From: Clostridia bacterium
Lineage (GTDB): Bacteria > Bacillota > Clostridia > UMGS1810
NCBI GenBank assembly: GCA_045586905.1
Contig: JAZNBF010000014.1
Coordinates: forward strand, 15,834 to 79,833
Direction of reading: 5' to 3'
Length of the DNA: 64,000 bases
The notes under the pieces were generated by a model. That model worked only from the letters and a program-made list of their open reading frames with translations, was not told the DNA's origin and did not search any database. A program made the position numbers and the translations under genes. Within the stretch, counting starts at the first letter, position 1, and each line of letters opens with the position of its first letter. This document shows, in pieces, positions 7,987 through 24,174 of this stretch.

Positions 7987-8026
7987 CAAAAAAAAGGGAA
8001 TTCCTTTTTTACAAAAGGAATTCCCC
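7987..8026 (-). terminator. Rho-independent terminator after the 3' half of the split gene
   Basis: A 9-bp GC-containing stem (GGGAATTCC 7996-8004 / GGAATTCCC 8017-8025) is followed on the minus strand by T8. There is also a T-run on the plus side, so it is bidirectional. Confidence 0.8.
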
Positions 8027-8031
8027 GTTTT

Positions 8032-8415
8032 TTATCTGCAACCGCAGTCGCCTATTGTGGTTTCAAGACTATCGAAGTGACATTTTTCGGGTGGGAAAAA
8101 TTCATCAACCGGGAAGCTTAATCTGTCGAAAAGCTCACAGGGGTTGTTGTCGATTGACTGAATGCAATCACCCTGAGGGATACAGAAATCGATAACAGGG
8201 ATGCAAAGCTCTACCTTGCGGGTGAGACGGACAATGGTGAAAAGACCGATTGTGACATATACCTTTTTGCCATCGGTTGTATCGACCAAAATGTCGTCAA
8301 ACACACACGAGATGTCTTCGGGAACAGATGACACATCCATTTCACCGCAACAGCAGCATGAGTTATCAGTTGCGTCTACAACTCTTGTTGCAAGACAGAT
8401 GGGGTCTACAACTTC
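8032..8415 (-). CDS. 3' half of a split Cys-rich gene (no start codon of its own at the junction)
   Basis: The track ORF 8032..8340 (102 aa) is open for a further 35 codons upstream. Host-derived reading from the crossover core is EVVDPICLATRVVDATDNSCCCCGE-MDVSS...DCGCR*. It continues in frame from the 5' half at 17333 once 8414-17322 is removed. Confidence 0.75.
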   Translation of the reverse strand, partial: EVVDPICLATRVVDATDNSCCCCGEMDVSSVPEDISCVFDDILVDTTDGKKVYVTIGLFTIVRLTRKVELCIPVIDFCIPQGDCIQSIDNNPCELFDRLSFPVDEFFPPEKCHFDSLETTIGDCGCR

Positions 8416-8427
8416 TGTTTGTGACAG
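8402..8427. repeat. Left junction (attL-like) of the intervening element
   Basis: GGGTCTACAACT-TC-TGTTTGTGACAG. The 10-nt run TCTGTTTGTG (8414-8423) is identical to 17323-17332. The right arm matches the right-junction dyad at 10/12 positions. Confidence 0.7.
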
Positions 8428-9266
8428 CTTTTTTCGCGTTGCTTTTCAAGCGTGAGTTGAGCTTTATCGAAGGTTCTTTTTGATATTATGGCAAGCTGGG
8501 GCAAGTGATGGACATAGTTTTCCTCAATGGGCAAAACCCTTCTTGTGCTTTCCATAAAATCGACCGTCTCGCTTTTGTTGTTGACGAGAATACCACAGTA
8601 TATGGGGTTTGACAAAATCCGTCTGATAGTTTTGGCATTCCATTGTTTGCCAAACTTTGTAGGTGTATTTTTTTCGTTAAGATGGGCGGCAATTTTCCGA
8701 AGTCCCATGTCGGATTTTGTGTAGAGGGAAAAAATCTTTTTTACAACTTTGCTCTCGACTTTATTCACACAAAGTGAGTATGTACCTGTTTTATCGTAAC
8801 CATATATGAGCGGCGGCGTTCTTCCCTTGCCTGCCGAAACCTTTTTGCCGAAAATTATTCTTTTTGATAAGTTGTAGGACTCTTCCTGCGCAATGGCAGC
8901 AAACATTGTGAGGGCAAATTCGGACTCTCCTAAAGTGTCCATGTTGCACGAGAGAAATCTCACATCGATGCCTCTTGATTTGAGTGTTCGTATGCCTACA
9001 AGAAAATCTACCGTGTTGCGCGCAAAGCGGCTGATGTCCTTAACAACGAGCATATCGAAAGTATGATTTTTGCTTTCATCAAGCATTGAAGAAAAAGCCT
9101 CACGGTTTTTAAGAGCTTTGCCGCTGATGCCTCGGTCGGCATAGATTTTAACAAGGTTATAATTGTATTTTTTTGCATATTCTTCGAAGAAAGCTTTTTG
9201 ATTTTCGAGTGATGACAATTGCTTTTCGCTTTTGGTTGACACTCTGCAATAAGCAGCGATATTCAT
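8406..9266 (-). CDS. Serine recombinase (resolvase catalytic domain plus 'recombinase' domain; no zinc-ribbon/coiled-coil)
   Basis: 286 aa with nucleophile motif AAYCRVSTKS and E-helix AIAQEESYNLSKRI. Recombinase-domain signatures are WNAKTIRRILSNPIYCG and LAIISKRTFDKAQ. The ORF reads across the crossover core and stops 5 nt beyond it. Confidence 0.9.
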   Translation of the reverse strand: MNIAAYCRVSTKSEKQLSSLENQKAFFEEYAKKYNYNLVKIYADRGISGKALKNREAFSSMLDESKNHTFDMLVVKDISRFARNTVDFLVGIRTLKSRGIDVRFLSCNMDTLGESEFALTMFAAIAQEESYNLSKRIIFGKKVSAGKGRTPPLIYGYDKTGTYSLCVNKVESKVVKKIFSLYTKSDMGLRKIAAHLNEKNTPTKFGKQWNAKTIRRILSNPIYCGILVNNKSETVDFMESTRRVLPIEENYVHHLPQLAIISKRTFDKAQLTLEKQREKSCHKQKL

Positions 9267-9303
9267 AAAAAAACCTCCTTGCTACAAGTGTATGCAAAGG
9301 AGG
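9267..9303 (-). terminator. Intrinsic terminator after the 397-aa SLH gene; its 3' arm is the recombinase Shine-Dalgarno
   Basis: Minus strand reads CCTCCTTTGC-atacacttgta-GCAAGGAGG-TTTTTTT-ATG. This is a 9-bp stem with one bulge. The U-run serves as the spacer between the SD and the recombinase ATG (9266). Confidence 0.65.
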
Positions 9304-9321
9304 TTTTAAGTTTCTTAAATG

Positions 9322-10515
9322 TTAAGGAATAAGAGTTGTGGGATCTTTTATACCAAACATTATCTCCAAAAGGAAATCTACATCATCGAGTGACATTTCA
9401 GGGTGTGTGGCAAGCTTTGAATAGAAAGCAGACTGAGCTTCTTCATCAAGAGCTTCGTATTTGGATTTTGCAAGTTGAACATCGGAACGGTATGTGTTTT
9501 TTACATAATTTTCAACATAAATCCACTCGCCATCAGCTGCATCGGCAAGAGTTTTCTGAATGGTACCAGCAACAACTTCGCCATCTACCTCGCCGCCTCT
9601 TACGATGTTTAATATGTTACGCTCTACATCACTTAATCTCAAAGTGGAACTGGTGATGACGCCAAGAAGCTTGTTGAGTTTTTCGACAACCAAAGCCTGT
9701 TTTGCGGAGTCAAACTGAGGAGTATCGGGCTCGTCAGGAGTGCTCGGTGTACTCGGAGTGCTTGGTGTACTCGGAGTGCTCGGTGTACTTGGTGTGCTTG
9801 AACCGCCACCGGAGCTTCCGCCACCGGAGTTTCCGCCACCGGAGTTTCCGCCACCACTGAAGCTGCCACCACCAATACTAGCACCTCCGCCAAAGCTTAC
9901 GCCGGGAGTTGTTGTGCTATCCTGAACAAAGTTGGCAAGGAGCAATGAAAGCTCACCTCTTGTCATGTTCTCTGTTGCTCTGAATGTGTTGTTGGCTTCC
10001 AAAGATATCAATCGGTTTGATATTACAGTTTTAACATCATTTTCTGCCCATGCAGAAACGGGATCGGATATTGCTATGTTGCCACCAAGATTGTAAAGTC
10101 CATTTACTCTTACAACTATCGCGCAAGCCTGTTCACGGGTAACCGGAGAATCGCCACGGAAGGTGCCATCTTCAAAGCCATTGATATAGCCGGCTTTTTT
10201 AGCAATTTTCACATGGCTGTAATACCACTTGTCTTCTGTCACATCGGAAAATACTAGAGTGTCCGGCACGGTGTATTTTTTGATGTTATTTATCATCTTA
10301 CAAAGTTCGGCTCTGGAAACACTTCGCTGAGGGGCAAAGGTGCCATCACCATTGCCATTTATTATGCCTGCATTTGCAAGCTTATATATTGCTTTGCCTA
10401 CCGTGGTTGAAGCATCAACATCGGTGAAGGAGATTTTTGTGTCGGCCAAAACGGGAACAATACTGTATGTGGCAATTAATATTACTGCCAAAAAAACTGA
10501 TAGAAACTTTTTCAT
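9322..10515 (-). CDS. Secreted S-layer-homology (3x SLH) protein with Gly/Ser and PST linker
   Basis: 397 aa with a signal peptide (MKKFLSVFLAVILIATYSIVPVLA) and three SLH modules (FTDVD..., FSDVTEDKWYY..., ISDPVSAWAEN...). These are followed by a GGGNSGGGSS run and a (PST)6 run, then a C-terminal domain of unknown function. Confidence 0.85.
   Translation of the reverse strand: MKKFLSVFLAVILIATYSIVPVLADTKISFTDVDASTTVGKAIYKLANAGIINGNGDGTFAPQRSVSRAELCKMINNIKKYTVPDTLVFSDVTEDKWYYSHVKIAKKAGYINGFEDGTFRGDSPVTREQACAIVVRVNGLYNLGGNIAISDPVSAWAENDVKTVISNRLISLEANNTFRATENMTRGELSLLLANFVQDSTTTPGVSFGGGASIGGGSFSGGGNSGGGNSGGGSSGGGSSTPSTPSTPSTPSTPSTPSTPDEPDTPQFDSAKQALVVEKLNKLLGVITSSTLRLSDVERNILNIVRGGEVDGEVVAGTIQKTLADAADGEWIYVENYVKNTYRSDVQLAKSKYEALDEEAQSAFYSKLATHPEMSLDDVDFLLEIMFGIKDPTTLIP
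9737..9799 (-). repeat. Tandem 9-nt (18-nt) coding repeat encoding (PST)n
   Basis: Seven units: ggagtgctc ggtgtactc ggagtgctt ggtgtactc ggagtgctc ggtgtactt ggtgtgctt. They lie inside the 397-aa SLH gene. Confidence 0.9.
9803..9850 (-). repeat. Tandem 15-nt coding repeat encoding the GGNSG-type linker
   Basis: ccgccaccggagctt / ccgccaccggagttt / ccgccaccggagttt, directly adjacent to the PST repeat. Confidence 0.85.
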
Positions 10516-10540
10516 TTTGTCACCTTTTCTTTCTTTGATA

Positions 10541-10572
10541 ATAATAGGCAGAAATTACTTTCTGCCTATTAT
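10541..10572 (-). terminator. 14-bp hairpin downstream of the giant SLH gene (attenuator/terminator candidate)
   Basis: ATAATAGGCAGAAA-ttac-TTTCTGCCTATTAT is a perfect stem, but it has only a weak U-tract on the minus strand. Confidence 0.45.
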
Positions 10573-10583
10573 TTCGCAGTGTC

Positions 10584-13500
10584 TTATTCAACTATTGCAC
10601 GGCTTACAACCACTTTGTTTGAGCCGGCTATAATTTCATATGTGTTACCGTCATCCTTTCTGGAAACCGTAATCTCTTTGCCCTGAACTGTCAAGGTGTA
10701 GGTGTCGGTATTTTTGCGTTCTACTCTTATTGTTTTACCTTTGATGGTTACCTCGTAGGTGTCTTGATCAATCTGAGTAATTCTGTCGATGCTGTCTAAG
10801 CCATCAAACTTGTTGACAATAAGATTGTAGCCTCTGCCAATGAGATTGAATGCTTCGTCGGTTGTGATGTTGATTGATTCGAATGCTTTGTTTACGCCTT
10901 TGCGAAGTTTTGCATAGTCATCGGAAGCATAATCCCTGTTGAATGAGCTTTGTTCGTACCAATCGAGGATTTTGTCTACTTTATCACCGAATTTTTCTTT
11001 AATCTTTTTCTCAACTGCTTTTACAATGTTATTGTCAAGCTTGTCGGGGAGAGCGCCTGTGTCGGCATAGTCACCAACCATATCGGCAATGATATTTGCA
11101 TATTTCACAAAGAGGTCTTCGTAGTCGAGAACAAGCTGGTCAAACTCGTCTTTCGAAAGCTCTTCCGTGTACCATTTCATTGCATCATCGCCAACAAGTG
11201 CTATTGCAACGAGGAGATTGTAGTAATCGGTGTAATCTTTGATTGCATAGCCTGTGCCAACACCTGTGTTTGTGTCGAAAACACATTCAACACTTGTGAG
11301 ACGGACAAGCTCTCTGAGGTACTGATTTTCTCTGTAATAATAGTTGCGTGTAGCTTTTTCGTCCAGAAGTTCTGCAAAACGATCACGGAATACTGCATAT
11401 ACATCGTCCACAAGGTTGATGATGAAATTGAGACCTGTGGAAATGTAAGCTGTTTGACCGTTTGCATTGGCCTGTTTGCCCTCTTCGATGTCTAAGAGGA
11501 GCTCATTGTAGGCTCTTGTGTAGATAGCTTCAAGCTTTGCTCTCGGATAGATTTTGAAAACTTGACTTGGAACCTTGGCAATGAGATCGTCGAAGGTGTA
11601 GTCTTTAACCTGCATTTCAAATGCTGTAAGAATGAAGCTGTTGTCTGATGCGATTTCAAATTCATCATCGCTTACAAGCTGATGTATCATAGTGTCGAGT
11701 ACATCACGATATCTTGACTCAATGATTTCATCGATGATATCGTCGAGCTGATCTGTTTCTCTGAGATGCTCTATTGCATGATCAACATATTCTTCAAAAT
11801 CGGAAAGGTCGCCTTTGTCAACAAAATAGTCAACAGCTTCGTTAATTATTGCTTCACGCTTGTCGGCATCATTATCGAAGAGATAGAGAACAAGCTCAAT
11901 GATAAACTGTTTGGTGTTTAAACTGTCAATGTTTGCAGGACAATAGCCAAATTCATCTTCAACTATTTCTTCGATATTGTCGTTGATGTAGTCTTCGATA
12001 TGACCGTCGATTTCTTCCTCTGTCATACCAAAAGCAAGAAGTTCAGCTTTTATCTCATCATATGTCATAGGATCAAGAACTGCTTTTGCATACTGAACAA
12101 TAAAGTCCATAGCATTTTCTTCGATTGGATCCGTAAACACAATGCCTGAATATTCTGCGATATATTCATTACGCTTTGTGGTGCTTGTTCTGATTTCATC
12201 TTCTACATCAGCTAAAATATGATGTTCAATTTCAGCAAAGAGGCTGTTCATGTCGGTGTAGCCAAGTTCGTGGGCAAGGTTATCATCGATTGTAACAGAT
12301 GAGTTTACCTTGTGCTTTACAACATCAATTACAAGGTCGAATGCATTTTGAGGAACAGCTGCATAGTTTGCATAGGTTATGCCTGCATGCTCTGCAATCT
12401 GTTCTACAAGGAATGTGTCGGCCGGATCTGCAACTCTTTCTTTGGCATCTTCCAGTGCATATTCTTTTGCTTTTCCGAGAATATCGATAGCTGTGTAGCC
12501 GAGTTTTTCCAAAGCATATTCGGAATCATTTTCAAAATAGATTTCTACAAAGCGTGCCATAAGCTCTCTCGGAGTAGATGGCAGGTCATCTGCTTTTTCG
12601 AATTCATCAAATGATGCTGCTTTTACATATGCATCAACCTTTGCCGCATCATCTAAGGATGCACTGAAGTTTGCAAAGAAGTTATCTATTTCACTTTGTG
12701 TCATAGAGGAGAAATCTTCGCCTGTCATAAGCTCAAGTTCTTCATAGTCGCCGCTTGTCTGTGCATCTGATACAACCTTTGTGAGAATCATTTTGAAGAG
12801 GTCGAGAGATGTGGCGGTGTCGGGAACTGATGACTGACCGATAAATTCCTGCAAAACATCGCCATATGCTGATTTTGACGTGTCTCTGATGTCTGTTGCT
12901 ATGATATCACCAAGCTCGTCGACAGCGGCATCGAGCATTGCTGCGCTGTCTACATAGCCTGCAAAATCAGCGAGTTCTTCATATGACATTGTTTGGATAG
13001 AATTGTCGATAAAATCGATGATTATAGAAACGGTTGAAGCAGGTTTAACTTCTGCGTAGGTATAGCCTGAGAAGTCGGTTGTGGAAACAACATGATTGAA
13101 GAAATCGGGATTGTCAAGATCGTCGACGAGAACTGTCAGGATATCATCCTTGCGGGCGTCAAACAGAGCCTGCAAATCGGCATATCCAAGTTCTACTGCG
13201 ATTTCATCAGGTGTCATTGCTTCAAAATGAGACTTAACAACATCGACAATCAAATCGGTTGTAGAAAGTCCGGATGATGGCTTCTGTATATCTTCGAACG
13301 GTGTGCCACGGAAATTATAGTGAACAACATCATCGAAGAAACCATCAGAAGACACCAGATTGTCGGTAATGTATTTTACAAGACGCTTTTTAACATTTGC
13401 TTTGAATGTGGGGTCCGTGTTAATGAGGTCTTTGGTCCATTTGATGATGGTGGGTGTAGCTGCGGAGGTAAGATCTTCATCTGTTACCGTTACATTGTAG

Positions 13501-16301
13501 CCTATAAAATCTGCAAATGCTGTCTTGATAAGGTCAGGATCGTCAAGACTTGTTTCGCATATATCTCTTATCATATCGAGCGCAGTGGCATCGGAGGAGA
13601 TTGCTCTGTCTATTGCTTCTTTAAAGAGGCTCTTGATTTCGGAAACATCGTCAGGATTTGAAGAATTTGCCATTCTTTCAAAATATTCGAAGATGGCGTC
13701 TTTGAGTTCATCATTGTCGCTGAGTGATTCTTTTGCGTTGTCTACAATGTATTCTTCAAGCTCTTCCTTGCCGATGATATCGGCAAATCTTACGAAAACT
13801 TCAAAAGGAAGAATGTTGTTGTTTGCATCTATTATGCCTTTTTCGCGAAGCTTTGAAAGTGCCTTGTTTCCACCTTTCTCTATCTGCTCCTGGAGACTTT
13901 GCTGAAGAGGTGTGGTGCTTGCGGAGAATGAATCCCAAATGAAGTTTTTGAAGGTATCCATTGCTCTTGTTCCTGTAACGGTTCTGTTTCCGGAACCGTC
14001 AACAGTGACAACAGTAGGCTCGTAATATCTTGCAAAGGTAAATCCTGTGCCGATCTTATCGACATAGGCATATATGCTGAGCTGAGGAGATCTTTCTTCA
14101 ACTGTGAGTACGCCCGAAGAATCTACGATTGTGTCAGTAACCAAAGTGGTTGAAGTGAATTTTTCCCATTTGTTTGTTTCGGGATTGTAGTACCAGCCAA
14201 ATTTCACTTTGTGTGTATATTCATTACCTACATATACGGGTGACACACTTGCAGTCTCCCTGTAACCTTCCTGCTCATAGAGTAAAAGGCCATCAAACAC
14301 ACTCTGGGGAACAGATGTGTTTTCGGGGACTATGTGTTCTCCCACCTGACTTCCCAAAGACATGAAGCGTACTGTGTAAAGTGGTGTTGTTTGCCATACA
14401 GCAGTAAATACCCAACCACCCTGTGGATCATAATCTATGATGGTGACATCCTCGCCACCGTTATAAAGATGGCCATTGCAGCTCCATCCAAGGAATACAT
14501 CGTATCCGTTTTCCACCTTGTCGGACTCCGGAAGAGTTATGGTTGAACCATAGGGAGTGGTAGCTACCGGAGGAGTATATCCGAGGATAAATGAACCACC
14601 ATTTGAGAAGTTATATGAAATGTTTATGGAATTTCTTGTATAGTACAATTTGAGAACAAGAGCATTGCCAGCCAAAACAGTGCCGCTTGATTTGCTCAAA
14701 TCAGGATCGGGATTGTAGGTGAAACCTGTAAAATAAGGAGGAACAACGCTGACGGAATCACCTATGTTTTTACCACTTATTGTTGCAGAAGATGTACATA
14801 CATAATCTGAAGCATCAGATGGCACACCACCTATTCTGAGCTGATAATACTCTATTGTGTAGTCAGCGGGGATAGCGGTTTTGTTGTAATAAAGCTTGAG
14901 AACGAGTGTTCCGTTTTTATTTACAACACCTGTTTTTACCTGAGATGCGTGAGAACCGTTATAGTAATAGCCATCTATATCTGTGGTAAGAGGTGCTGCT
15001 TCAACGGTTGCATTGAGAACATCTTTTTTAGTTTGTGTTTTTGAAGAGTCTCTAAGATACTCCACAGGATTTGCACCGTTTTGGAAATAGTGTTCAATCT
15101 TGTATGTATACACTGCAACGAAATCATTTGATGAGTTTACGGTTATTGTGTCACCGGGATTTTTTATTGCACCATATCTGTCACGCCATCCTGCAAAGCC
15201 GGGATAGTTTGTCATATTGGGAGTGGGAAGAGTATAGGTGTTGCCTTTTTTTACTTTATCTGACTTAGACACACCTGCACCCGAAACATTTATAAGATAA
15301 GTTACAGGAGATGATGATGAAGAACTGCCGCCTGTGGAAATGCTGTAATTATCGCCTTTGTATGTTGCCTGTGTAATTTCCTTTATATTTTTAAAAACAT
15401 CTTCCGATTTGTAGTTGTCAAAATGAACTACACCGTTGACGTCTTTAACTACGATGTTTTCGCCCACTGTTGTATTTACAAGTCTTACTGAATCTTCACC
15501 GCCTCGGCAAAGAATGCGGCCTTTTACAGTAACATTTTCAAATACAACGGAGCCAAAGCCCACACCATCACCTATGATGAGGTCGCCCTCTATTGTTACA
15601 TCGCGGAGTATTACACCTGATGCACGGATAATGACTGAGTCAAGACCTGCTTTGGTGTATGTCCCTGAGCTGACATAGTAGGTTTTGATGATGTTGTGCA
15701 TAAGCTGAGCAAATTCCTCACGGGTTATGTATGAGTGAGGGTTGAGATTGGCATTTTCATCACCGTTTATGTAGCCCTTTTGAGAAAGAATTGCAGCATA
15801 AGGCTTTGCCCAGGAGGAGATTGCTCCCGAGTCGGGATGAGCCGAAAGAGCAGAATAGTCGGAAGTTTCTAAAACAAGTGCTCTGGCAATAACTGCAAAA
15901 ACTTCTTCTCTTGTGATGGGATCGTTTGGTCGCATTGTGCCTGTGCCATCACCCTGGAAAGTCTGCATGTTTACAGCTTTGGCAATTTCAGTATAGAACC
16001 AGTCTTTTGGTGATACATCACTAAAAGATGAGATATCGGCCATTTTCGTGGCACCAAATGCACGGTTGATAACCGTTGCCAGTTCGGCACGTGTAAGATT
16101 GCCGGTTGGTTCGATAGTGGTGGTGGTTCGGCCTCTAAGAAGCCCGTTTGCCACAGCCGCTCTCATAGCTTCAGCTGACCATCCGGTAGGGAAATCGGTA
16201 AAGCCTGAAGTGTTGGCTGCAAACGCTTGCAAACACGTTGGCAAAACCATGGTAAAGCTCAGAATAATTGCAAGAGCTTTTTTTATAAAACTTTTTTTCA
16301 T
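10584..16301 (-). CDS. Giant (1905 aa) SLH-anchored surface protein
   Basis: It has a signal peptide and three N-terminal SLH modules, then a beta-helix-like segment. A Listeria/Bacteroides-type repeat follows (GFAGWRDRYGAIKNPGDTITV), then two MucBP-like beta modules (YKIEHYFQN..., YTIEYYQLR...). After that comes about 1200 aa of acidic helical repeats and three short C-terminal beta repeats. Confidence 0.9.
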   Translation of the reverse strand: MKKSFIKKALAIILSFTMVLPTCLQAFAANTSGFTDFPTGWSAEAMRAAVANGLLRGRTTTTIEPTGNLTRAELATVINRAFGATKMADISSFSDVSPKDWFYTEIAKAVNMQTFQGDGTGTMRPNDPITREEVFAVIARALVLETSDYSALSAHPDSGAISSWAKPYAAILSQKGYINGDENANLNPHSYITREEFAQLMHNIIKTYYVSSGTYTKAGLDSVIIRASGVILRDVTIEGDLIIGDGVGFGSVVFENVTVKGRILCRGGEDSVRLVNTTVGENIVVKDVNGVVHFDNYKSEDVFKNIKEITQATYKGDNYSISTGGSSSSSSPVTYLINVSGAGVSKSDKVKKGNTYTLPTPNMTNYPGFAGWRDRYGAIKNPGDTITVNSSNDFVAVYTYKIEHYFQNGANPVEYLRDSSKTQTKKDVLNATVEAAPLTTDIDGYYYNGSHASQVKTGVVNKNGTLVLKLYYNKTAIPADYTIEYYQLRIGGVPSDASDYVCTSSATISGKNIGDSVSVVPPYFTGFTYNPDPDLSKSSGTVLAGNALVLKLYYTRNSINISYNFSNGGSFILGYTPPVATTPYGSTITLPESDKVENGYDVFLGWSCNGHLYNGGEDVTIIDYDPQGGWVFTAVWQTTPLYTVRFMSLGSQVGEHIVPENTSVPQSVFDGLLLYEQEGYRETASVSPVYVGNEYTHKVKFGWYYNPETNKWEKFTSTTLVTDTIVDSSGVLTVEERSPQLSIYAYVDKIGTGFTFARYYEPTVVTVDGSGNRTVTGTRAMDTFKNFIWDSFSASTTPLQQSLQEQIEKGGNKALSKLREKGIIDANNNILPFEVFVRFADIIGKEELEEYIVDNAKESLSDNDELKDAIFEYFERMANSSNPDDVSEIKSLFKEAIDRAISSDATALDMIRDICETSLDDPDLIKTAFADFIGYNVTVTDEDLTSAATPTIIKWTKDLINTDPTFKANVKKRLVKYITDNLVSSDGFFDDVVHYNFRGTPFEDIQKPSSGLSTTDLIVDVVKSHFEAMTPDEIAVELGYADLQALFDARKDDILTVLVDDLDNPDFFNHVVSTTDFSGYTYAEVKPASTVSIIIDFIDNSIQTMSYEELADFAGYVDSAAMLDAAVDELGDIIATDIRDTSKSAYGDVLQEFIGQSSVPDTATSLDLFKMILTKVVSDAQTSGDYEELELMTGEDFSSMTQSEIDNFFANFSASLDDAAKVDAYVKAASFDEFEKADDLPSTPRELMARFVEIYFENDSEYALEKLGYTAIDILGKAKEYALEDAKERVADPADTFLVEQIAEHAGITYANYAAVPQNAFDLVIDVVKHKVNSSVTIDDNLAHELGYTDMNSLFAEIEHHILADVEDEIRTSTTKRNEYIAEYSGIVFTDPIEENAMDFIVQYAKAVLDPMTYDEIKAELLAFGMTEEEIDGHIEDYINDNIEEIVEDEFGYCPANIDSLNTKQFIIELVLYLFDNDADKREAIINEAVDYFVDKGDLSDFEEYVDHAIEHLRETDQLDDIIDEIIESRYRDVLDTMIHQLVSDDEFEIASDNSFILTAFEMQVKDYTFDDLIAKVPSQVFKIYPRAKLEAIYTRAYNELLLDIEEGKQANANGQTAYISTGLNFIINLVDDVYAVFRDRFAELLDEKATRNYYYRENQYLRELVRLTSVECVFDTNTGVGTGYAIKDYTDYYNLLVAIALVGDDAMKWYTEELSKDEFDQLVLDYEDLFVKYANIIADMVGDYADTGALPDKLDNNIVKAVEKKIKEKFGDKVDKILDWYEQSSFNRDYASDDYAKLRKGVNKAFESINITTDEAFNLIGRGYNLIVNKFDGLDSIDRITQIDQDTYEVTIKGKTIRVERKNTDTYTLTVQGKEITVSRKDDGNTYEIIAGSNKVVVSRAIVE

Positions 16302-16328
16302 TGTACTTCCTCCCAGTGCTATATTTGA

Positions 16329-17159
16329 TTAGGTTATTAAACTTAGGTAGTGTGCTTTTTTGAGACTTTTTTCGTTTTGATACGAGGAGCGGATCTGATC
16401 GACAAGTCCCGTGCTTTCTCCTGCATCTTTCAAAAGACCTGTCAGTTTGGAAAGTAATTTGTCAATCTGATCATCACAGTCTCTCTCTAAAGCTGCTGCT
16501 TTTGGATATACCTCGGCAAGCAAAGACTTTTTCTTTGCGGACCTTTGTTCTTTTGTCATATTACGCCACAATGCCTTATACTCTGAAAAGGCCTGATTAT
16601 ATATGACATCAAGCTGACCGACAAAGTTGGCTTTTATAACATAAACCTGAGCTATGCATGCCGATATTTCACTGCTGTTGTCAGGTTTGGAGCTATCTTC
16701 TTCTGAATCGCCTTTGTTTGTTGTTTCTTCGGATTGTGTCGCGTTCTGGTTTGACGCAGCTTCCTGCTTTAGTTGGTTTGCGGTTTCGGCATCTACCTTT
16801 TCACCGCTTTCGACAATTGTTATATTTTTGTCTTCACCAAGCTCAAGCTCTGTACCGAACATTTTTTCAATTGTTGTTTGTTCGGTTATAAGGCTCACGA
16901 GTTCGCTATCGTCGATCACACCTTTTTTGTGAAGTTCTTCTTCAAGCGGTTTTGACGGTCTGACGTTGTATTTCGAATTTTCCTCAAGATAGGTTCCTAC
17001 CTCTTCGGAATTTTCACTCATGAGAGCATCGATGTCGGAGTCGGAATATTTAACCCAGTAATACAGTGCCTTTATGTTTCCAAACTGCCACCAGACAAGG
17101 CAGGCACAAAGGGAAAATATAACGATAATTGATATTAAAATTTTATGTGTTTTTTTCAT
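16329..17159 (-). CDS. Membrane-anchored protein of unknown function (first gene of the cargo operon)
   Basis: MKKTHKILISIIVIFSLCACLVWW is an N-terminal anchor, followed by an acidic low-complexity middle and a helical C-terminus. The track start at 17180 would add MCGDCLE; I prefer ATG 17159. Confidence 0.65.
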   Translation of the reverse strand: MKKTHKILISIIVIFSLCACLVWWQFGNIKALYYWVKYSDSDIDALMSENSEEVGTYLEENSKYNVRPSKPLEEELHKKGVIDDSELVSLITEQTTIEKMFGTELELGEDKNITIVESGEKVDAETANQLKQEAASNQNATQSEETTNKGDSEEDSSKPDNSSEISACIAQVYVIKANFVGQLDVIYNQAFSEYKALWRNMTKEQRSAKKKSLLAEVYPKAAALERDCDDQIDKLLSKLTGLLKDAGESTGLVDQIRSSYQNEKSLKKAHYLSLIT

Positions 17160-17233
17160 TTCTAAGCAATCACCACACATATGTTTTTATACTTATGGGC
17201 ACAATAACCCATAATTAAAACTATACATATTAC

Positions 17234-17262
17234 ATTCTATACTTTTATTCATCTTTTGTCAA
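17234..17262 (-). promoter_or_regulatory. SigmaA-type promoter for the element's cargo operon
   Basis: Minus strand reads TTGACA (17262-17257), a 17-nt spacer, then TAGAAT (17239-17234). It lies about 75 nt upstream of ATG 17159, just inside the right end of the element. Confidence 0.5.
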
Positions 17263-17777
17263 GTGAAACCGAAGATTTTAGCATGCCAAAAAAAGACAAA
17301 TATTGCACAGGTGGCACAAACATCTGTTTGTGCCACAGGAAGATTGTTTTTCTGCCAGAGCTGAATGTCGGCTGCTTCTTCTTTATATTTGGAACTGAAG
17401 GTTTTTGCATTGCCTTCTGAACCGAAAAGAATAACCTTTTTGTCATAGCTTGCAATACCCTCTACCTGAGTAGGTCTGCCAAGACCTGTGAAGACATCAA
17501 GTGTTATGCGAATGAAAATTTTGAGATCGACGCTATAATAGCCTCTGTTGAATGCCACAGGCTCAACATCGGAATAGATCCATATGATTTCTGCTTTCCG
17601 GCATCTTACGCTTGTTGACCTGTCTAAAAGGCTCTGCCCACACTCAGTGAGATATACTCTTAAGTTTTCTATGCATTCTTTATCACGGCACGAGTCATAT
17701 ACTTTTTTGGTCTGTATACATACTTCATTACCACAGTTAGCGTTGTTTGAGTTACAGGAATTTACCCTATCGCTCAT
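17259..17777 (-). CDS. 5' half of the split Cys-rich gene (151 native codons plus 21 read-through codons from the element)
   Basis: MSDRVNSCNSNNANCGNEVCIQTKKVYDSCRDKECIENLRVY...LPVAQT, then the junk tail DVCATCAIFVFFWHAKIFGFT*. A strong SD (GGAGG) lies 8 nt upstream of ATG 17777. Confidence 0.75.
   Translation of the reverse strand: MSDRVNSCNSNNANCGNEVCIQTKKVYDSCRDKECIENLRVYLTECGQSLLDRSTSVRCRKAEIIWIYSDVEPVAFNRGYYSVDLKIFIRITLDVFTGLGRPTQVEGIASYDKKVILFGSEGNAKTFSSKYKEEAADIQLWQKNNLPVAQTDVCATCAIFVFFWHAKIFGFT
17311..17336. repeat. Right junction (attR-like): perfect 12-2-12 dyad
   Basis: GTGGCACAAACA-TC-TGTTTGTGCCAC is a perfect 26-bp palindrome around a central TC. It contains the 10-nt repeat TCTGTTTGTG (17323-17332). 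Confidence 0.75.
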
Positions 17778-17830: not shown

Positions 17831-17858
17831 TATAATATGAGCGAAACCGTTATTTTGT
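17831..17858 (-). promoter_or_regulatory. SigmaK-like (mother-cell type) promoter candidate upstream of the split gene
   Basis: Minus strand reads cACa, a 17-nt spacer, then CATATTATA. This fits the Bacillus sigmaK pattern AC-N16/17-CATAnnnTA. It sits about 55 nt upstream of ATG 17777. Confidence 0.35.
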
Positions 17859-17906: not shown

Positions 17907-18380
17907 ATGAAAAAATCAAAAAGGGTGTCCGAATCTTACACCGAGCATGTTCAGATTCTGTCGCAGGCAAGTCTTAACGGATACAAAAGACTTTTTGGTG
18001 GAAAGCTTATGGAGTGGATTGACATTGTGGCAGCAGTAGTGGCAAGAAGGCACTCGGGGTGTAATGTGACAACGGTATCGGTGGATAGTCTCATTTTCAA
18101 AAAACCCGCCTATGCCAATGACACCATAACCATCAACGGATTTATTACCTATGCAGGAAAAACATCGATGGAAATTTGCGTTAAAACTTATCTTGAAAAT
18201 CTTGACGGAAGCCGGGAAGAAATCAACACTGCTTTTCTGGTTATGGTGGCAATTGACGAAAACGAAAAACCTGTGGAGGTGCCCACTCTTATAGCAGAAA
18301 GTGAAACCGACAAAGCAAATTTTGAAGCGGCAAAAAGAAGAAGAGAACTCAGAAAGCTAAGAGAAAATGAAAATTTTTAA
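17907..18380 (+). CDS. Acyl-CoA thioesterase (hotdog fold, YciA/BFIT-like)
   Basis: 157 aa. The layout (...NGYKRLFGGKLMEWIDIVAAVVARRHSG..VTTVSVDSLIFKKPA...) is typical of acyl-CoA hydrolases. Confidence 0.8.
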   Translation: MKKSKRVSESYTEHVQILSQASLNGYKRLFGGKLMEWIDIVAAVVARRHSGCNVTTVSVDSLIFKKPAYANDTITINGFITYAGKTSMEICVKTYLENLDGSREEINTAFLVMVAIDENEKPVEVPTLIAESETDKANFEAAKRRRELRKLRENENF

Positions 18381-19387
18381 AAATCTAAAAACATTGCAAC
18401 AACAAGCTCTGCCATGGATTTTGAAAGATTTGTTTTATTCTTTATAGCCTGTTTTGCCCTTTCTGTGTCGATGTAGTCACTGCCCGATATTCTGCCAAAG
18501 CTGAAAAGCCCGTATCCGTAGCGGTCGTCCCGGCCAAAGCCGCTGAGGTCTTCTGTGTAGATGTTTAACAGAAGACGGATTTCATCGGGAGTGAGGAAAC
18601 GGTTGTAACGCATTCGTCCCTTTGATTGCAAAATGGCAACAGCACCTGTTATTATGGGAGTGGCCATGGATGTGCCGCTGAGGGTTGCATAGGTGTTGTT
18701 TTTATAGGTGGAGTAGATGTCGATGCCTGCGGCAGATATCTCAGCGCTGGGGCCCCGTGAACTGAAGCTTGCTATGTGCTTGCCGCAGTCAACTGCCGAA
18801 ACAGCAATGGTCTCATTAAAGCTTGCAGGATAACCCATGGCGCCCTCTCCCTTTTCGCCTTCGTTGCCTGCCGCACAAATCATGGTTATGCCATTTTTGC
18901 GTGCAAGCTTCACAAGAGCGGCATAACGCCCCGATGAAAAAGATGACGAAAACGACATGTTTATAACGCTGACTCTGCACTTTATGAGCCACAGTATACT
19001 TTTTTCTATCGCCTGATAGTCGGTTTTTCCATGGGTGTCGAAAGCTTTGCAGATGTACAGTTCTGACAAGGGAGCAACTCCAACCACGCCGATGCCATTT
19101 TTCTCGGCAGCTACGATTCCTGCCACATGGGTGCCATGTCCGTTGGTGTCTTCTATATCATAAATTCCGGTGCCCGAAAAAGAAATACCGTCTTTAATGC
19201 GCTCTTTAAGATCGGGATGGGTGGTGTCGATGCCTGTGTCTATTATTCCCACTCTTATGCCCTCTCCCATTGTCTCCTTCCATTCGAGAGGAGCGCCGAC
19301 CATTCTGACTCCATAGTCGACAACCTCCTCACCAGATCCTTTGTCTGAACTTATGAAGGTGTATTCACTTATTTTAAAATTTTTCAT
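18377..19387 (-). CDS. Subtilisin-family (S8) serine protease, apparently intracellular
   Basis: 336 aa. Catalytic triad motifs are GIIDTGID, HGTHVAG and GTSMATP. There is no signal peptide. Confidence 0.9.
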   Translation of the reverse strand: MKNFKISEYTFISSDKGSGEEVVDYGVRMVGAPLEWKETMGEGIRVGIIDTGIDTTHPDLKERIKDGISFSGTGIYDIEDTNGHGTHVAGIVAAEKNGIGVVGVAPLSELYICKAFDTHGKTDYQAIEKSILWLIKCRVSVINMSFSSSFSSGRYAALVKLARKNGITMICAAGNEGEKGEGAMGYPASFNETIAVSAVDCGKHIASFSSRGPSAEISAAGIDIYSTYKNNTYATLSGTSMATPIITGAVAILQSKGRMRYNRFLTPDEIRLLLNIYTEDLSGFGRDDRYGYGLFSFGRISGSDYIDTERAKQAIKNKTNLSKSMAELVVAMFLDF

Positions 19388-19643: not shown

Positions 19644-20489
19644 ATGGACACAACTTTATTGGTAATGGCTGCCGGAATGGGTTCCCGTTTTGGCGGGCTG
19701 AAGCAAATTGCTCCCATGGGCAAAAATGGTGAAATCATACTTGACTTTTCAGTATATGATGCAATCAAAGCAGGCTTCAACAAGGCGGTTTTCATCATAA
19801 AAAAAGAAATAGAACACGACTTCAGAGAAGCAGCAGGAAAAAGAATTGAAAAGATGATTGACACAGAATATGTTTTCCAGCAGATTGATTCATCTCTTCC
19901 AAACGGTTTTTCAGTGCCCGACTGCAGAAAGAAACCCTGGGGAACAGGTCACGCTGTTCTTTGCGCAAAAGACGCTGTAAAAACCCCATTTGCAGCAATC
20001 AATGCAGATGACTACTATGGCAGAAATTCATTAAAGCTTGTCCACTCTGCTCTTGTTGGCGGAAGTGAAATCTGTATGGCAGGTTTCAGACTTGGTAACA
20101 CCTTAACCGAAAACGGTACCGTGAGCAGAGGCATTTGTGAAATAGAAAACGGACTTTTGAAATCGGTAACCGAGCACACAGCTCTCGACAAAAACTCACC
20201 CTTCCCCATGGACACCGTTGTTTCCATGAACATGTGGGGATTTAAGCCAACAATATTCGATGAGCTTGAAACAAGATTTGAAGATTTCCTCAAAAATCTT
20301 TCAAACCCTGAAAAAGAAGAGTTTTTCCTTCCTTTTGTTGTGGACGACCTTATTAAAACAAGAAATCAGAAAGTTGACGCCTACATATCTGATGACAAGT
20401 GGTATGGCGTAACATATAAAGAAGATACCCCCTCGGTAAGAGAGGCACTTCAAAAACTTATGGAAGAAGGTTATTACGATGGGATCTAA
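19644..20489 (+). CDS. Sugar-1-phosphate nucleotidyltransferase
   Basis: N-terminal signature LLVMAAGMGSRFGGLKQ. I prefer ATG 19644, 9 nt after the AGGAG SD, over 19635. It overlaps the downstream kinase gene by 11 nt. Confidence 0.8.
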   Translation: MDTTLLVMAAGMGSRFGGLKQIAPMGKNGEIILDFSVYDAIKAGFNKAVFIIKKEIEHDFREAAGKRIEKMIDTEYVFQQIDSSLPNGFSVPDCRKKPWGTGHAVLCAKDAVKTPFAAINADDYYGRNSLKLVHSALVGGSEICMAGFRLGNTLTENGTVSRGICEIENGLLKSVTEHTALDKNSPFPMDTVVSMNMWGFKPTIFDELETRFEDFLKNLSNPEKEEFFLPFVVDDLIKTRNQKVDAYISDDKWYGVTYKEDTPSVREALQKLMEEGYYDGI

Positions 20490-21561
20490 CATAGCCCCAA
20501 TAAACGAAATAATGCATGCTTTTTCAATTAAGTTTGATGTCGACCCTTACGGTGACGGTCATATCAATGACACATATCTTGCAGATGCAAAACCCCGCTA
20601 CATACTTCAGAGAATCAACACAGCTGTTTTCAAAAATCCCCAGAAACTTATGGAGAACATCTGGAATGTTACCGAGCATCTCAGAGGAATAATAGAAAAA
20701 AACGGAGGCAATCCAAACAGAGAAACTCTCACTGTTATAAAAACAAGAGATGACAAGCTGTTTTATGAGGCAAGTGACGGAAAATGTTACAGAGTGTATA
20801 TTTTCATTGACAACACTCTTTCTCTAAACCTCCCCGAAAACCCCACTCAGTTTGAAAACTCTGCAAAGGCTTTCGGTCGTTTTCAAAATATGCTTGCAAG
20901 TTTTGATGCTTCTTCTCTTTATGAGACTATACCCGATTTTCATAACACACCAAAGAGAACCGAAAACCTTAAAGCTGCCTACGAAAAAAATGCTGCAGGC
21001 AGAAAAGATGAGGTTGAGGAGATTTACAACGAATATCTCAAATTTGCAGAGGACTGTGCTGTTATAACAAACGATCTTGAATCGGGTGCTATTCCCAAAC
21101 GAGTTACCCACAATGACACAAAGCTCAACAACGTGTTGTTTGATCCTGTGACACAGGAAGGCGTTTGCGTTATCGACCTCGATACCGTTATGCCGGGTTC
21201 TCTCCTCTTTGACTATGGCGATTCACTCCGTTTTGGTGCTTCTACTGCTGTTGAAGATGAGGCCGACCTTGACAAGGTATGGTTTGACCTTGAATATTTT
21301 GAAAGCTACACAAGAGGTTTCCTCTCCGAGCTCAAAGAAACAATCACAAAGCGCGAGGTTGAGCTTATGCCACTCGCTGCACTCACCATGACATATGAAT
21401 GCGGCATACGCTTCCTCACTGACTATCTCGACGGTGACACATACTTCAAAATTCACTATCCTGATCAGAACCTTGTGAGAGCTAAAAACCATCTCAAGCT
21501 TTGTCAGGACATTTTCTCAAAGCTTGGCGACATGAAAAAAATAGTTGAAAAATACATGTAA
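20479..21561 (+). CDS. nahK: N-acetylhexosamine 1-kinase-like (NahK/APH-fold) anomeric sugar kinase
   Basis: 360 aa and collinear with Bifidobacterium NahK as I remember it (PYGDGHINDTYL, ILQRINT..F, RVTHNDTKLNNVLFD, VIDLDTVMPGSLLFDYGDSLRFGAST, YPDQNLVRAK). Confidence 0.8.
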   Translation: MGSNIAPINEIMHAFSIKFDVDPYGDGHINDTYLADAKPRYILQRINTAVFKNPQKLMENIWNVTEHLRGIIEKNGGNPNRETLTVIKTRDDKLFYEASDGKCYRVYIFIDNTLSLNLPENPTQFENSAKAFGRFQNMLASFDASSLYETIPDFHNTPKRTENLKAAYEKNAAGRKDEVEEIYNEYLKFAEDCAVITNDLESGAIPKRVTHNDTKLNNVLFDPVTQEGVCVIDLDTVMPGSLLFDYGDSLRFGASTAVEDEADLDKVWFDLEYFESYTRGFLSELKETITKREVELMPLAALTMTYECGIRFLTDYLDGDTYFKIHYPDQNLVRAKNHLKLCQDIFSKLGDMKKIVEKYM

Positions 21562-21601
21562 TCTGACATAAGTTTAATTTGTCTGAAACCATTTTTCGAC
21601 A

Positions 21602-21631
21602 GTATACAAATCAAAGCCTTCGGGAAAGATT
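21602..21631 (+). promoter_or_regulatory. Forespore (sigmaF/sigmaG)-type promoter candidate for sigG
   Basis: GTATA (21602-21606), a 16-nt spacer, then GGAAAGATT. This resembles GYATA-N15/16-GGnnAnAHT. It overlaps a 12-bp hairpin (GAAAGATTTTAT/ATAAAATCTTTC). Confidence 0.3.
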
Positions 21632-21668
21632 TTATTGCAGACATAAAATCTTTCTCGGAGGTTTTTTT

Positions 21669-22439
21669 ATGATAAACAAGGTAGAAATTTGCGGTGTGAA
21701 CACGTCTAAACTTCCGGTGCTTTCAAACGACGAAAAGCTCAGACTTTTTGACAGGATAAAAAAAGGTGACAAGGAAGCAAGAGAAGAATTTATAAGCGGT
21801 AATTTAAGGCTTGTGCTTTCTGTTATACAAAAATTTTCAGGACGTGGCGAAAATGCCGACGACCTTTTTCAGGTGGGTTGCATCGGGCTTATAAAATCTG
21901 TGGATAATTTTGATCTTTCACAAAATGTAAAGTTTTCCACTTATGCAGTACCGATGATTATTGGTGAGATAAGAAGATATCTGCGTGACAATAACTCCAT
22001 AAGAGTGAGCAGATCGCTGAGAGATACAGCCTACAAGGCACTGGGAGCAAAAGAAAGACTTATGGCCAGAAACGAGACAGAGCCTACCATTGACGAAATT
22101 GCAAAAGAGCTTGGCATGGAAAAGGAAGACATTGTGTTTGCTCTTGATGCAATACAGGAGCCTGTGTCGCTTTTTGAACCTGTGTATAATGACGGAAATG
22201 ATGCAATTTTTGTGATGGATCAGCTGAGCGACGAAAAAAGTCTTGACGAGAACTGGCTTGAAGAAATATCACTTAAAGAAGCAATGAAAAAACTCGGCGA
22301 CCGTGAAAAGCACATTATCAATCTCAGATTTTACAAAGGCAGAACTCAGATGGAAGTGGCAAAGGAGCTCGGAATAAGTCAGGCACAGGTTTCGAGGCTT
22401 GAAAAAACAGCACTAAAATCGATGAAGAAAAACATGTGA
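21669..22439 (+). CDS. sigG: Sporulation sigma factor SigG
   Basis: The N-terminus MINKVEICGVNTSKLPVLSNDE... and the segment NLRLVLSVIQKFSGRGENADDLFQVGCIGLIKSVDNFDLSQNVKFSTYAVPMIIGEIRRYLRDNNSIRVSRSL are near-identical to B. subtilis SigG. GGAGG lies 8 nt upstream. The track ORF start (21579) is an upstream extension. Confidence 0.93.
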   Translation: MINKVEICGVNTSKLPVLSNDEKLRLFDRIKKGDKEAREEFISGNLRLVLSVIQKFSGRGENADDLFQVGCIGLIKSVDNFDLSQNVKFSTYAVPMIIGEIRRYLRDNNSIRVSRSLRDTAYKALGAKERLMARNETEPTIDEIAKELGMEKEDIVFALDAIQEPVSLFEPVYNDGNDAIFVMDQLSDEKSLDENWLEEISLKEAMKKLGDREKHIINLRFYKGRTQMEVAKELGISQAQVSRLEKTALKSMKKNM

Positions 22440-24110: not shown

Positions 24111-24141
24111 AAAACAATTTGTTTTATGTACCATGTCCAAA

Positions 24142-24174
24142 AGACAGAAACAATTTTGTTTCTGTCTTTTTTTT
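24142..24174 (+). terminator. Rho-independent terminator (purF-like gene / hairpin array)
   Basis: AGACAGAAAC-aatttt-GTTTCTGTCT followed by T8. Confidence 0.8.

Follow-up and report, generated by a model that had tools for sequence, protein, structure and literature searches.

Organization of the Locus

The DNA analyzed here, a stretch of 64 kb (the window) from a gut Clostridia bacterium, carries on its minus strand a gene that is divided by an intervening element. Listed from the promoter of this host gene to its stop codon, the features of the locus are:

17831-17858, minus strand: sigmaK-like promoter of the host gene (AC, 17-nt spacer, CATATTATA)
17325-17777, minus strand: 5' part of the host gene, codons 1-151 (the ORF fragment runs 17259-17777)
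17311-17336, no strand assigned: attR, the junction of the host 5' part and the element, a perfect dyad, GTGGCACAAACA TC TGTTTGTGCCAC
17323-17324, no strand assigned: putative crossover dinucleotide TC in attR (GA on the gene strand), the center of the dyad
8416-17324, minus strand: gene-intervening element of 8,909 bp, with all four of its genes on the minus strand
16329-17180, minus strand: cargo gene for a 283-amino acid (aa) protein with no function assigned, kept in L008, L009, L011, and L012
10584-16301, minus strand: cargo gene for a 1,905-aa protein with S-layer-homology (SLH) domains, kept in related elements
9322-10515, minus strand: cargo gene for a 397-aa protein with SLH domains, kept in related elements
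8406-9266, minus strand: serine recombinase gene, encoding 286 aa with Resolvase and Recombinase domains only (Pfam)
8402-8433, no strand assigned: attL, the junction of the element and the host 3' part, with the core GGGTCTACAACT TC TGTTTGTGACAG at 8402-8427
8414-8415, no strand assigned: putative crossover dinucleotide TC in attL, from sequence comparison
8032-8415, minus strand: 3' part of the host gene, Glu152 to the stop codon (the ORF fragment runs 8032-8340)

Deletion in silico of positions 8416-17324 fuses the two fragments in frame to encode a cysteine-rich protein of 278 aa, and more than 2,500 full-length homologs of the restored protein (about 275-285 aa) align with it with no gap across the junction. 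The junction lies inside a near-invariant stretch, LPxAxxEVVDPI, with the GA of the presumed crossover providing the first two bases of the invariant Glu152 codon. Since the join at TC restores an ORF that aligns gap-free to intact homologs, the two sites are recognized as attR and attL of a gene-intervening element, and the host site that a preliminary description of this DNA had reconstructed from the two junctions proved to be correct. In relatives, the split halves of the host gene are 62-88% identical to those of the window; their N-terminal fragments are in frame up to the junction, their 3' parts each form an intact ORF of 100-141 aa, and the sequenced parts of the halves contain no frame disruption.

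The host protein has no match in Pfam or NCBIfam, PF27077 is listed for some of its homologs, and its AF2 model (pLDDT 61.6) gave no Foldseek match with an E value below 0.01. The AC-17-CATATTATA motif upstream of the gene is kept in three of the related loci (L008, L009, and L022) and fits the sigmaK consensus. SigG is encoded in the window (21579-22439, plus strand) with scores above the NCBIfam curated cut-offs, and the split host gene is probably sporulation-related. Beside the SigG gene lies one for a protein of the APH family (20479-21561, plus strand), the family to which the spore-coat kinase CotS belongs, and a gene for a subtilisin-like S8 protease (18377-19387, minus strand) neighbors the split gene.

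The same element layout was found in L008, L009, and L022, and the cargo proteins, the giant SLH proteins as well as the one of 283 aa, are kept in elements with short recombinases and in those with long ones. In the element-free locus L023, homologs of the 283-aa and giant proteins are encoded (8062-11120) approximately 1.2 kb downstream of the intact host gene; none was found at that place in L026 or L027. These arrangements hint at a functional or historical tie between the cargo and the host gene. A hairpin, AAAACCTCCTTTGC-loop-GCAAGGAGGTTTT, with a T-run after it, lies a short way ahead of the recombinase start codon (9270-9307, minus strand); the Shine-Dalgarno sequence lies inside the 3' arm of the hairpin and its loop has a conserved CATAYA motif resembling a -10 element. 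This structure resembles a terminator serving the gene upstream, and it would hide the ribosome-binding site of the recombinase as well. This hairpin is present in five of seven relatives checked (L007, L008, L009, and L020 among them) and absent from L024 and L025.

Sequence and Rarity of the Junction Sites

The 12-2-12 dyad at 17311-17336 was confirmed on rereading, with its arms complementary at 12/12 positions around a non-palindromic TC. Positions 17311-17322 constitute the element arm of attR, while 17325-17336 form the host arm, coding for Val-Ala-Gln-Thr on the minus strand. At the left junction (8402-8427), the right arm agrees with that of the right junction at 10/12 positions and the left arm at 6/12, as had been claimed. 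Written on the gene strand, the reconstructed attB is GTGGCACAAACA-GA-AGTTGTAGACCC and the reconstructed attP is CTGTCACAAACA-GA-TGTTTGTGCCAC; one arm is the same in both, and the agreement of the two element arms with this host arm is 12/12 and 10/12.

A custom script was used to search the entire 64-kb window for perfect dyads whose arms were 12 nt or longer and whose spacers measured 0-4 nt, with 200 shuffles serving as the control. Four distinct dyads were found, that of attR included, and a 12-nt arm with a 2-nt spacer arose in 0/200 shuffles, for which the longest arm was 11 nt. Within the window, the exact 12-mer arm occurs only as the two arms of the attR dyad and, with up to two mismatches allowed, the attL arm is the sole match located at a junction. 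The junction dyad and its partner are thus confirmed to be beyond chance. The other 12 such matches are scattered through the window, compared to 6.7 +/- 2.8 expected by chance, and a surplus of half-site copies in the window beyond the att sites is not convincing. The remaining three perfect dyads have arms of 13-15 nt and are intergenic, being located after the giant gene (10540-10573), after the host gene (7996-8025), and near 24.1 kb (24139-24170); these are probably intrinsic terminators.

Related Elements and the Crossover Dinucleotide

The 10-bp run TCTGTTTGTG is common to both junctions, at 8414-8423 and 17323-17332, as described previously; with these 10 bp identical, the sequence of this window alone cannot place the crossover. 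Related elements were obtained from look-ups of encoding contigs, the source of most att pairs, together with one genome scan; the recombinase query identified eight loci in the scan of public genomes and five in a metagenome scan, only one of which was close. The same host gene was found to be interrupted at the same GA by 13 elements, nine with short recombinases and four with full-length enzymes (473-485 aa; in one case a contig end intervenes). The bases to the right of GA invariably differ between host and element, and the dyad axis falls on GA in every element. With L009 (jN ...CAAATT GA TGTG... vs. jC ...CAAACA GA AGTA...) and L012 (...AAGTT GA AACTG... vs. ...CAGCG GA GGTCG...), the two sites also disagree directly to the left of GA, so that nothing but GA is identical at the dyad axis. 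The comparison of sequences thus lends good support to the central TC/GA put forward in the preliminary description as the putative point of strand exchange.

These observations bear on two other interpretations of the junctions. Crossover might occur elsewhere within the shared 10 bp, given their identity in this window, or the dyad might function mainly as an RNA hairpin or terminator, as it could fold in the minus-strand transcript. Both are most improbable: host and element never agree to the right of GA and, in L009 and L012, disagree in two bases to its left too; the axis of symmetry remains on GA throughout; the symmetry amounts to only 8/12 in relatives; and there is no T-run immediately after the dyad. 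The palindrome could also have been a conserved part of the uninterrupted gene. Instead, the element-free locus L023 reads ATAGCAAAGATT-GA-AGTTGTGGATCC and hence the palindrome does not belong to the uninterrupted gene.

Across the relatives, recombinase identity and host-gene identity drop together, which suggests that element and host gene have co-diverged vertically. The elements at this one site are architecturally diverse, as the gene arrangements of L012 and L010 differ. Thus, the L012 element (JAJXRJ010000025.1, 8191-16637) carries a full-length recombinase of 485 aa at the same GA, the gene for which is internal and oriented opposite to the host gene, while the recombinase gene of L010 diverges from the junction. 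Two further contigs, L001 and L028, come from JGI sample 3300029305 and look like opposite halves of a single element carried by a close relative, apparently separated where the assembly broke inside the giant, repeat-rich cargo genes.

Length and Symmetry of the Conserved Arms

On the attR side, the 12 N-terminal host fragments of close relatives all continue past the host part with Asp-Val-(Cys/Phe/Ser)-x-Thr (Ile in one), a stretch corresponding to GA plus about 12 nt, beyond which divergence is complete. On the attL side, the element arm is conserved for approximately 18 nt (AAAAGCTGTCACAAACA on the minus strand; nine short-recombinase elements). The majority fraction per column is 0.83-0.94 out to about -18 to -20 and 0.43-0.59 further out, a drop that occurs despite this region being recombinase coding sequence. 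Overall, the conserved element arms span 12-18 nt, as opposed to distinct attP and attB sites of 40-50 bp.

Comparison of the arms within single elements gave 8-12/12 matching positions among the host 5' arm and the two element arms, whereas the host 3' arm, constrained to code for EVVDP, matches the others at only 4-8/12. The att pair of L012, with its long recombinase, is less self-similar (6-7/12). Dyad symmetry at attR is 12/12 in the window, 11/12 in its closest relative (L028), and 8/12 in L008, L009, and L022. The perfect symmetry that had been noted thus holds for the junction in this window, but as a general trait it does not, being lineage-specific. Likewise, the near-identity of three of the four half-sites stands, but it had been called unusual for attB/attP pairs of large serine recombinases; it is instead the expected need of an enzyme with only a recombinase domain.

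A Recombinase Ending at a Domain Boundary

The 286-aa recombinase is comprised of a catalytic domain (PF00239, E = 9e-32, residues 3-149) and a recombinase domain (PF07508, E = 4e-24, residues 170-275), as identified by Pfam. Its catalytic motifs, including YCRVST with S10, are invariant in 36 relatives. With NCBIfam, only the first ~230-290 positions are covered of the CcrA, CcrB, CcrC, and XisF models, which are 442-558 positions long, and coverage of the CcrB, CcrC, and XisF models ends at ~280-286; phmmer aligns the enzyme to residues 63-296 of the 545-aa SPbeta integrase (SprA). The protein therefore ends at the boundary between the recombinase domain (RD) and the zinc-ribbon domain (ZD). 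Its AF2 model has an overall pLDDT of 81.8, with values of 93-97 over most of the recombinase domain and a dip at residues 231-240, and the best Foldseek matches to it are complexes of SPbeta integrase (E about 1e-16), an NTD+RD fragment of phiC31, and Bxb1.

The preliminary description had judged the sites by those of the large serine recombinases. The enzyme is not a complete member of that group, as the protein has the Resolvase and Recombinase domains without the zinc-ribbon/coiled-coil domain; equally, at 286 aa and with PF07508 it differs from the small serine recombinases of ~180-200 aa with a C-terminal helix-turn-helix. A tblastn search using the C-terminal halves of eight long relatives covered the 64-kb window and the DNA up to 10 kb from each short-recombinase locus, and found no zinc-ribbon/coiled-coil coding sequence. 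No description of relatives devoid of the zinc ribbon, or of this element, was found in the literature, and no large serine recombinase, natural or engineered, is known to be active without its entire zinc-ribbon domain.

The recombinase ORF crosses the crossover site (8406-8415), such that its last three codons, the third of them spanning the crossover, run into or lie in host DNA; its stop codon is a TAG within the host sequence GTT GTA GAC. On an excised circle, the ORF would encode 308 aa, an extension of 22 residues. In L020, the recombinase gene terminates at a stop codon of its own, 50 nt ahead of the site, and so the short length is intrinsic and independent of the TAG supplied by the host. 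Two other accounts of the short ORF were considered and rejected. Division of the recombinase gene by its own attP, with a zinc-ribbon half at the other end of the element, is contradicted by a circle ORF of only 308 aa and by the lack of zinc-ribbon sequence in the window; an in-frame fusion to the host 3' part is precluded by a difference of +1 between the two frames.

Short proteins of 277-323 aa dominate the closest matches to the enzyme. Its nearest long relatives are integrases of 473-501 aa with 56-61% identity, relative to which it is ~200 residues shorter at its C-terminus. A neighbor-joining tree groups the short recombinases, with one outlier, into a single contiguous clade of 93 clusters apart from the relatives of 454-501 aa, and in every deeper short subclade examined the members sit in the same host gene. 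Pairwise dN values are 0.18-0.44 with dS saturated, and dN/dS is 0.09-0.21 where it could be estimated; as judged by these substitution rates, the short recombinase is shown to be under purifying selection.

The shortfall of ~200 C-terminal residues raises the question of whether the recombinase is a 3'-truncated remnant, with the element immobile and the host gene permanently inactivated. Exact look-ups in a collection of 15 billion proteins are in keeping with this view, as neither the intact host protein nor the 308-aa circle form of the recombinase was found. Nevertheless, the proposal is very improbable: short genes of the same length persist across lineages with saturated synonymous sites and dN/dS of about 0.1-0.2, both halves of the host gene are open and conserved, and the att arms are conserved far above their flanks. 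None of these features would be expected of decaying DNA.

Proposed Mechanism of Excision

The picture that emerges, and which we regard as probable, is that of a split-gene element with a recombinase devoid of a zinc ribbon which acts on short half-sites, cuts at TC/GA to release a circle, and restores the gene with mother-cell timing. In this scheme, a dimer of the recombinase would bind each site by its half-sites, some 12 bp and at most about 18 bp long, for which the consensus is roughly YTGKCAMAMACA. Both sites would be cut at the central TC/GA prior to strand exchange, with the release of an 8.9-kb circle and restoration of the host gene. The 286-aa protein presumably provides catalysis alone.

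With the integrase of LI, the ZD motif is located at positions 16-24 of attP half-sites and 11-19 of attB half-sites, and the recombinase domain touches the major groove at positions 9-11 (PMC3783163). An enzyme without a zinc-ribbon domain would be expected to use short half-sites that resemble one another, and recombination of attL with attR would not be blocked. The conserved arms of ~12-18 bp fit recognition by the recombinase domain alone, which would also account for the near-identity of the half-sites, and we infer that this domain reads the whole inner half-site.

A different division of labor would leave the att sites as real while deeming the 286-aa protein insufficient; another locus in the genome would then encode the protein that excises the element or helps to do so, either a large serine recombinase of full length or a partner with the zinc-ribbon/coiled-coil domain. 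Full-length relatives of 473-485 aa indeed hit exactly the same GA in L011, L012, and L013, and the serine integrases studied contact the whole 25-bp half-site through RD and ZD (PMC3783163). Such an arrangement is nonetheless unlikely, given that the short gene is under strong purifying selection with all catalytic residues kept, that the arms are conserved over 12-18 nt only, below the reach of a zinc-ribbon domain, and that neither the window nor the DNA up to 10 kb from the short-recombinase loci encodes such a partner.

If the short recombinase does act by itself, excision would proceed without a directionality factor, as the enzyme is without the module that separates attP from attB and blocks attL x attR; control would then reside in when the recombinase is made. 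The integrase of LI without its coiled coil treats PxB and LxR substrates alike, and this IntDeltaCC gave only small amounts of product (PMC5499577). Comparison of four of the elements revealed no conserved small ORF on the sense strand and, hence, no candidate for a directionality factor. The sporulating mother cell is the most likely setting for excision, in view of the sigmaK-like motif and the presence of SigG in the window and by analogy with skin, SPbeta, and gin, each of which is excised in the mother cell (PMC5595907).

Relationship to Known Systems

The geometry of the crossover sites is that of the small serine invertases and resolvases: Hin/hix, Gin/gix, and res site I have sites of ~26-28 bp, with two inverted arms of roughly 12 bp around a 2-bp crossover. 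The small enzymes bind through a helix-turn-helix of about 40-50 aa and depend on accessory sites, or on an enhancer with Fis. In contrast, the enzyme described here has a recombinase domain of ~130 aa, and neither an accessory site nor an enhancer was seen.

A likeness in organization is found with the gene-intervening elements of sporulation, namely skin/SpoIVCA in sigK, SPbeta/SprA-SprB in spsM, gin/GirC-GirX in gerE, and skinCd in C. difficile. As with these, an ORF is interrupted, the element encodes its own serine recombinase next to one junction, and precise joining restores the frame; their att sites too are composed of a short common core with imperfect inverted repeats, gin having a 9-bp core and a 27-bp repeat (PMC5595907). 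Unlike the present enzyme of 286 aa without a zinc-ribbon/coiled-coil domain, their recombinases are full length (58 kDa for GirC), and they need a small directionality factor (SprB, GirX, or CD1234), for which no candidate is present here. The present element is further distinguished by conserved arms of 12-18 bp, by an uncharacterized target gene, and by a cargo of giant SLH-domain proteins rather than phage genes.

The serine integrases (LI/A118, phiC31, Bxb1, and SPbeta) have homologous catalytic and recombinase domains and sites with a dyad around a non-palindromic dinucleotide, as here. What the short enzyme is missing is the domain responsible for the outer half-site, attP/attB identity, and directionality (PMC3783163, PMC5499577), and while the attP and attB of the integrases are distinct, three of the four half-sites of the present pair are nearly alike.

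Implications

Taken further, the data lead to an evolutionary proposal that we put forward tentatively, its chances being slightly under even: a long-lived, monophyletic clade may have lost the whole zinc-ribbon/coiled-coil module and yet still work, as a dedicated excisionase that is free of a directionality factor, acts on sites of ~26-38 bp, and has been domesticated with a cassette of giant surface proteins in one late-sporulation gene. If true, this would represent a natural experiment showing that site-specific recombination needs no more than the catalytic and recombinase domains. Both directionality and site choice in the serine integrases are credited to the zinc-ribbon/coiled-coil module, and a lineage without that module would test the model directly; it would also show how the integrase of a mobile element can become a one-way developmental switch. 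Should the 286-aa enzyme prove active, it would provide a compact recombinase with short sites that would be of interest to genome engineering. For the spore-formers, their list of split genes gains a new member, coding for an uncharacterized cysteine-rich protein with a sigmaK-like promoter, and the carriers of such genes now include uncultured Oscillospiraceae/Clostridia of the gut.
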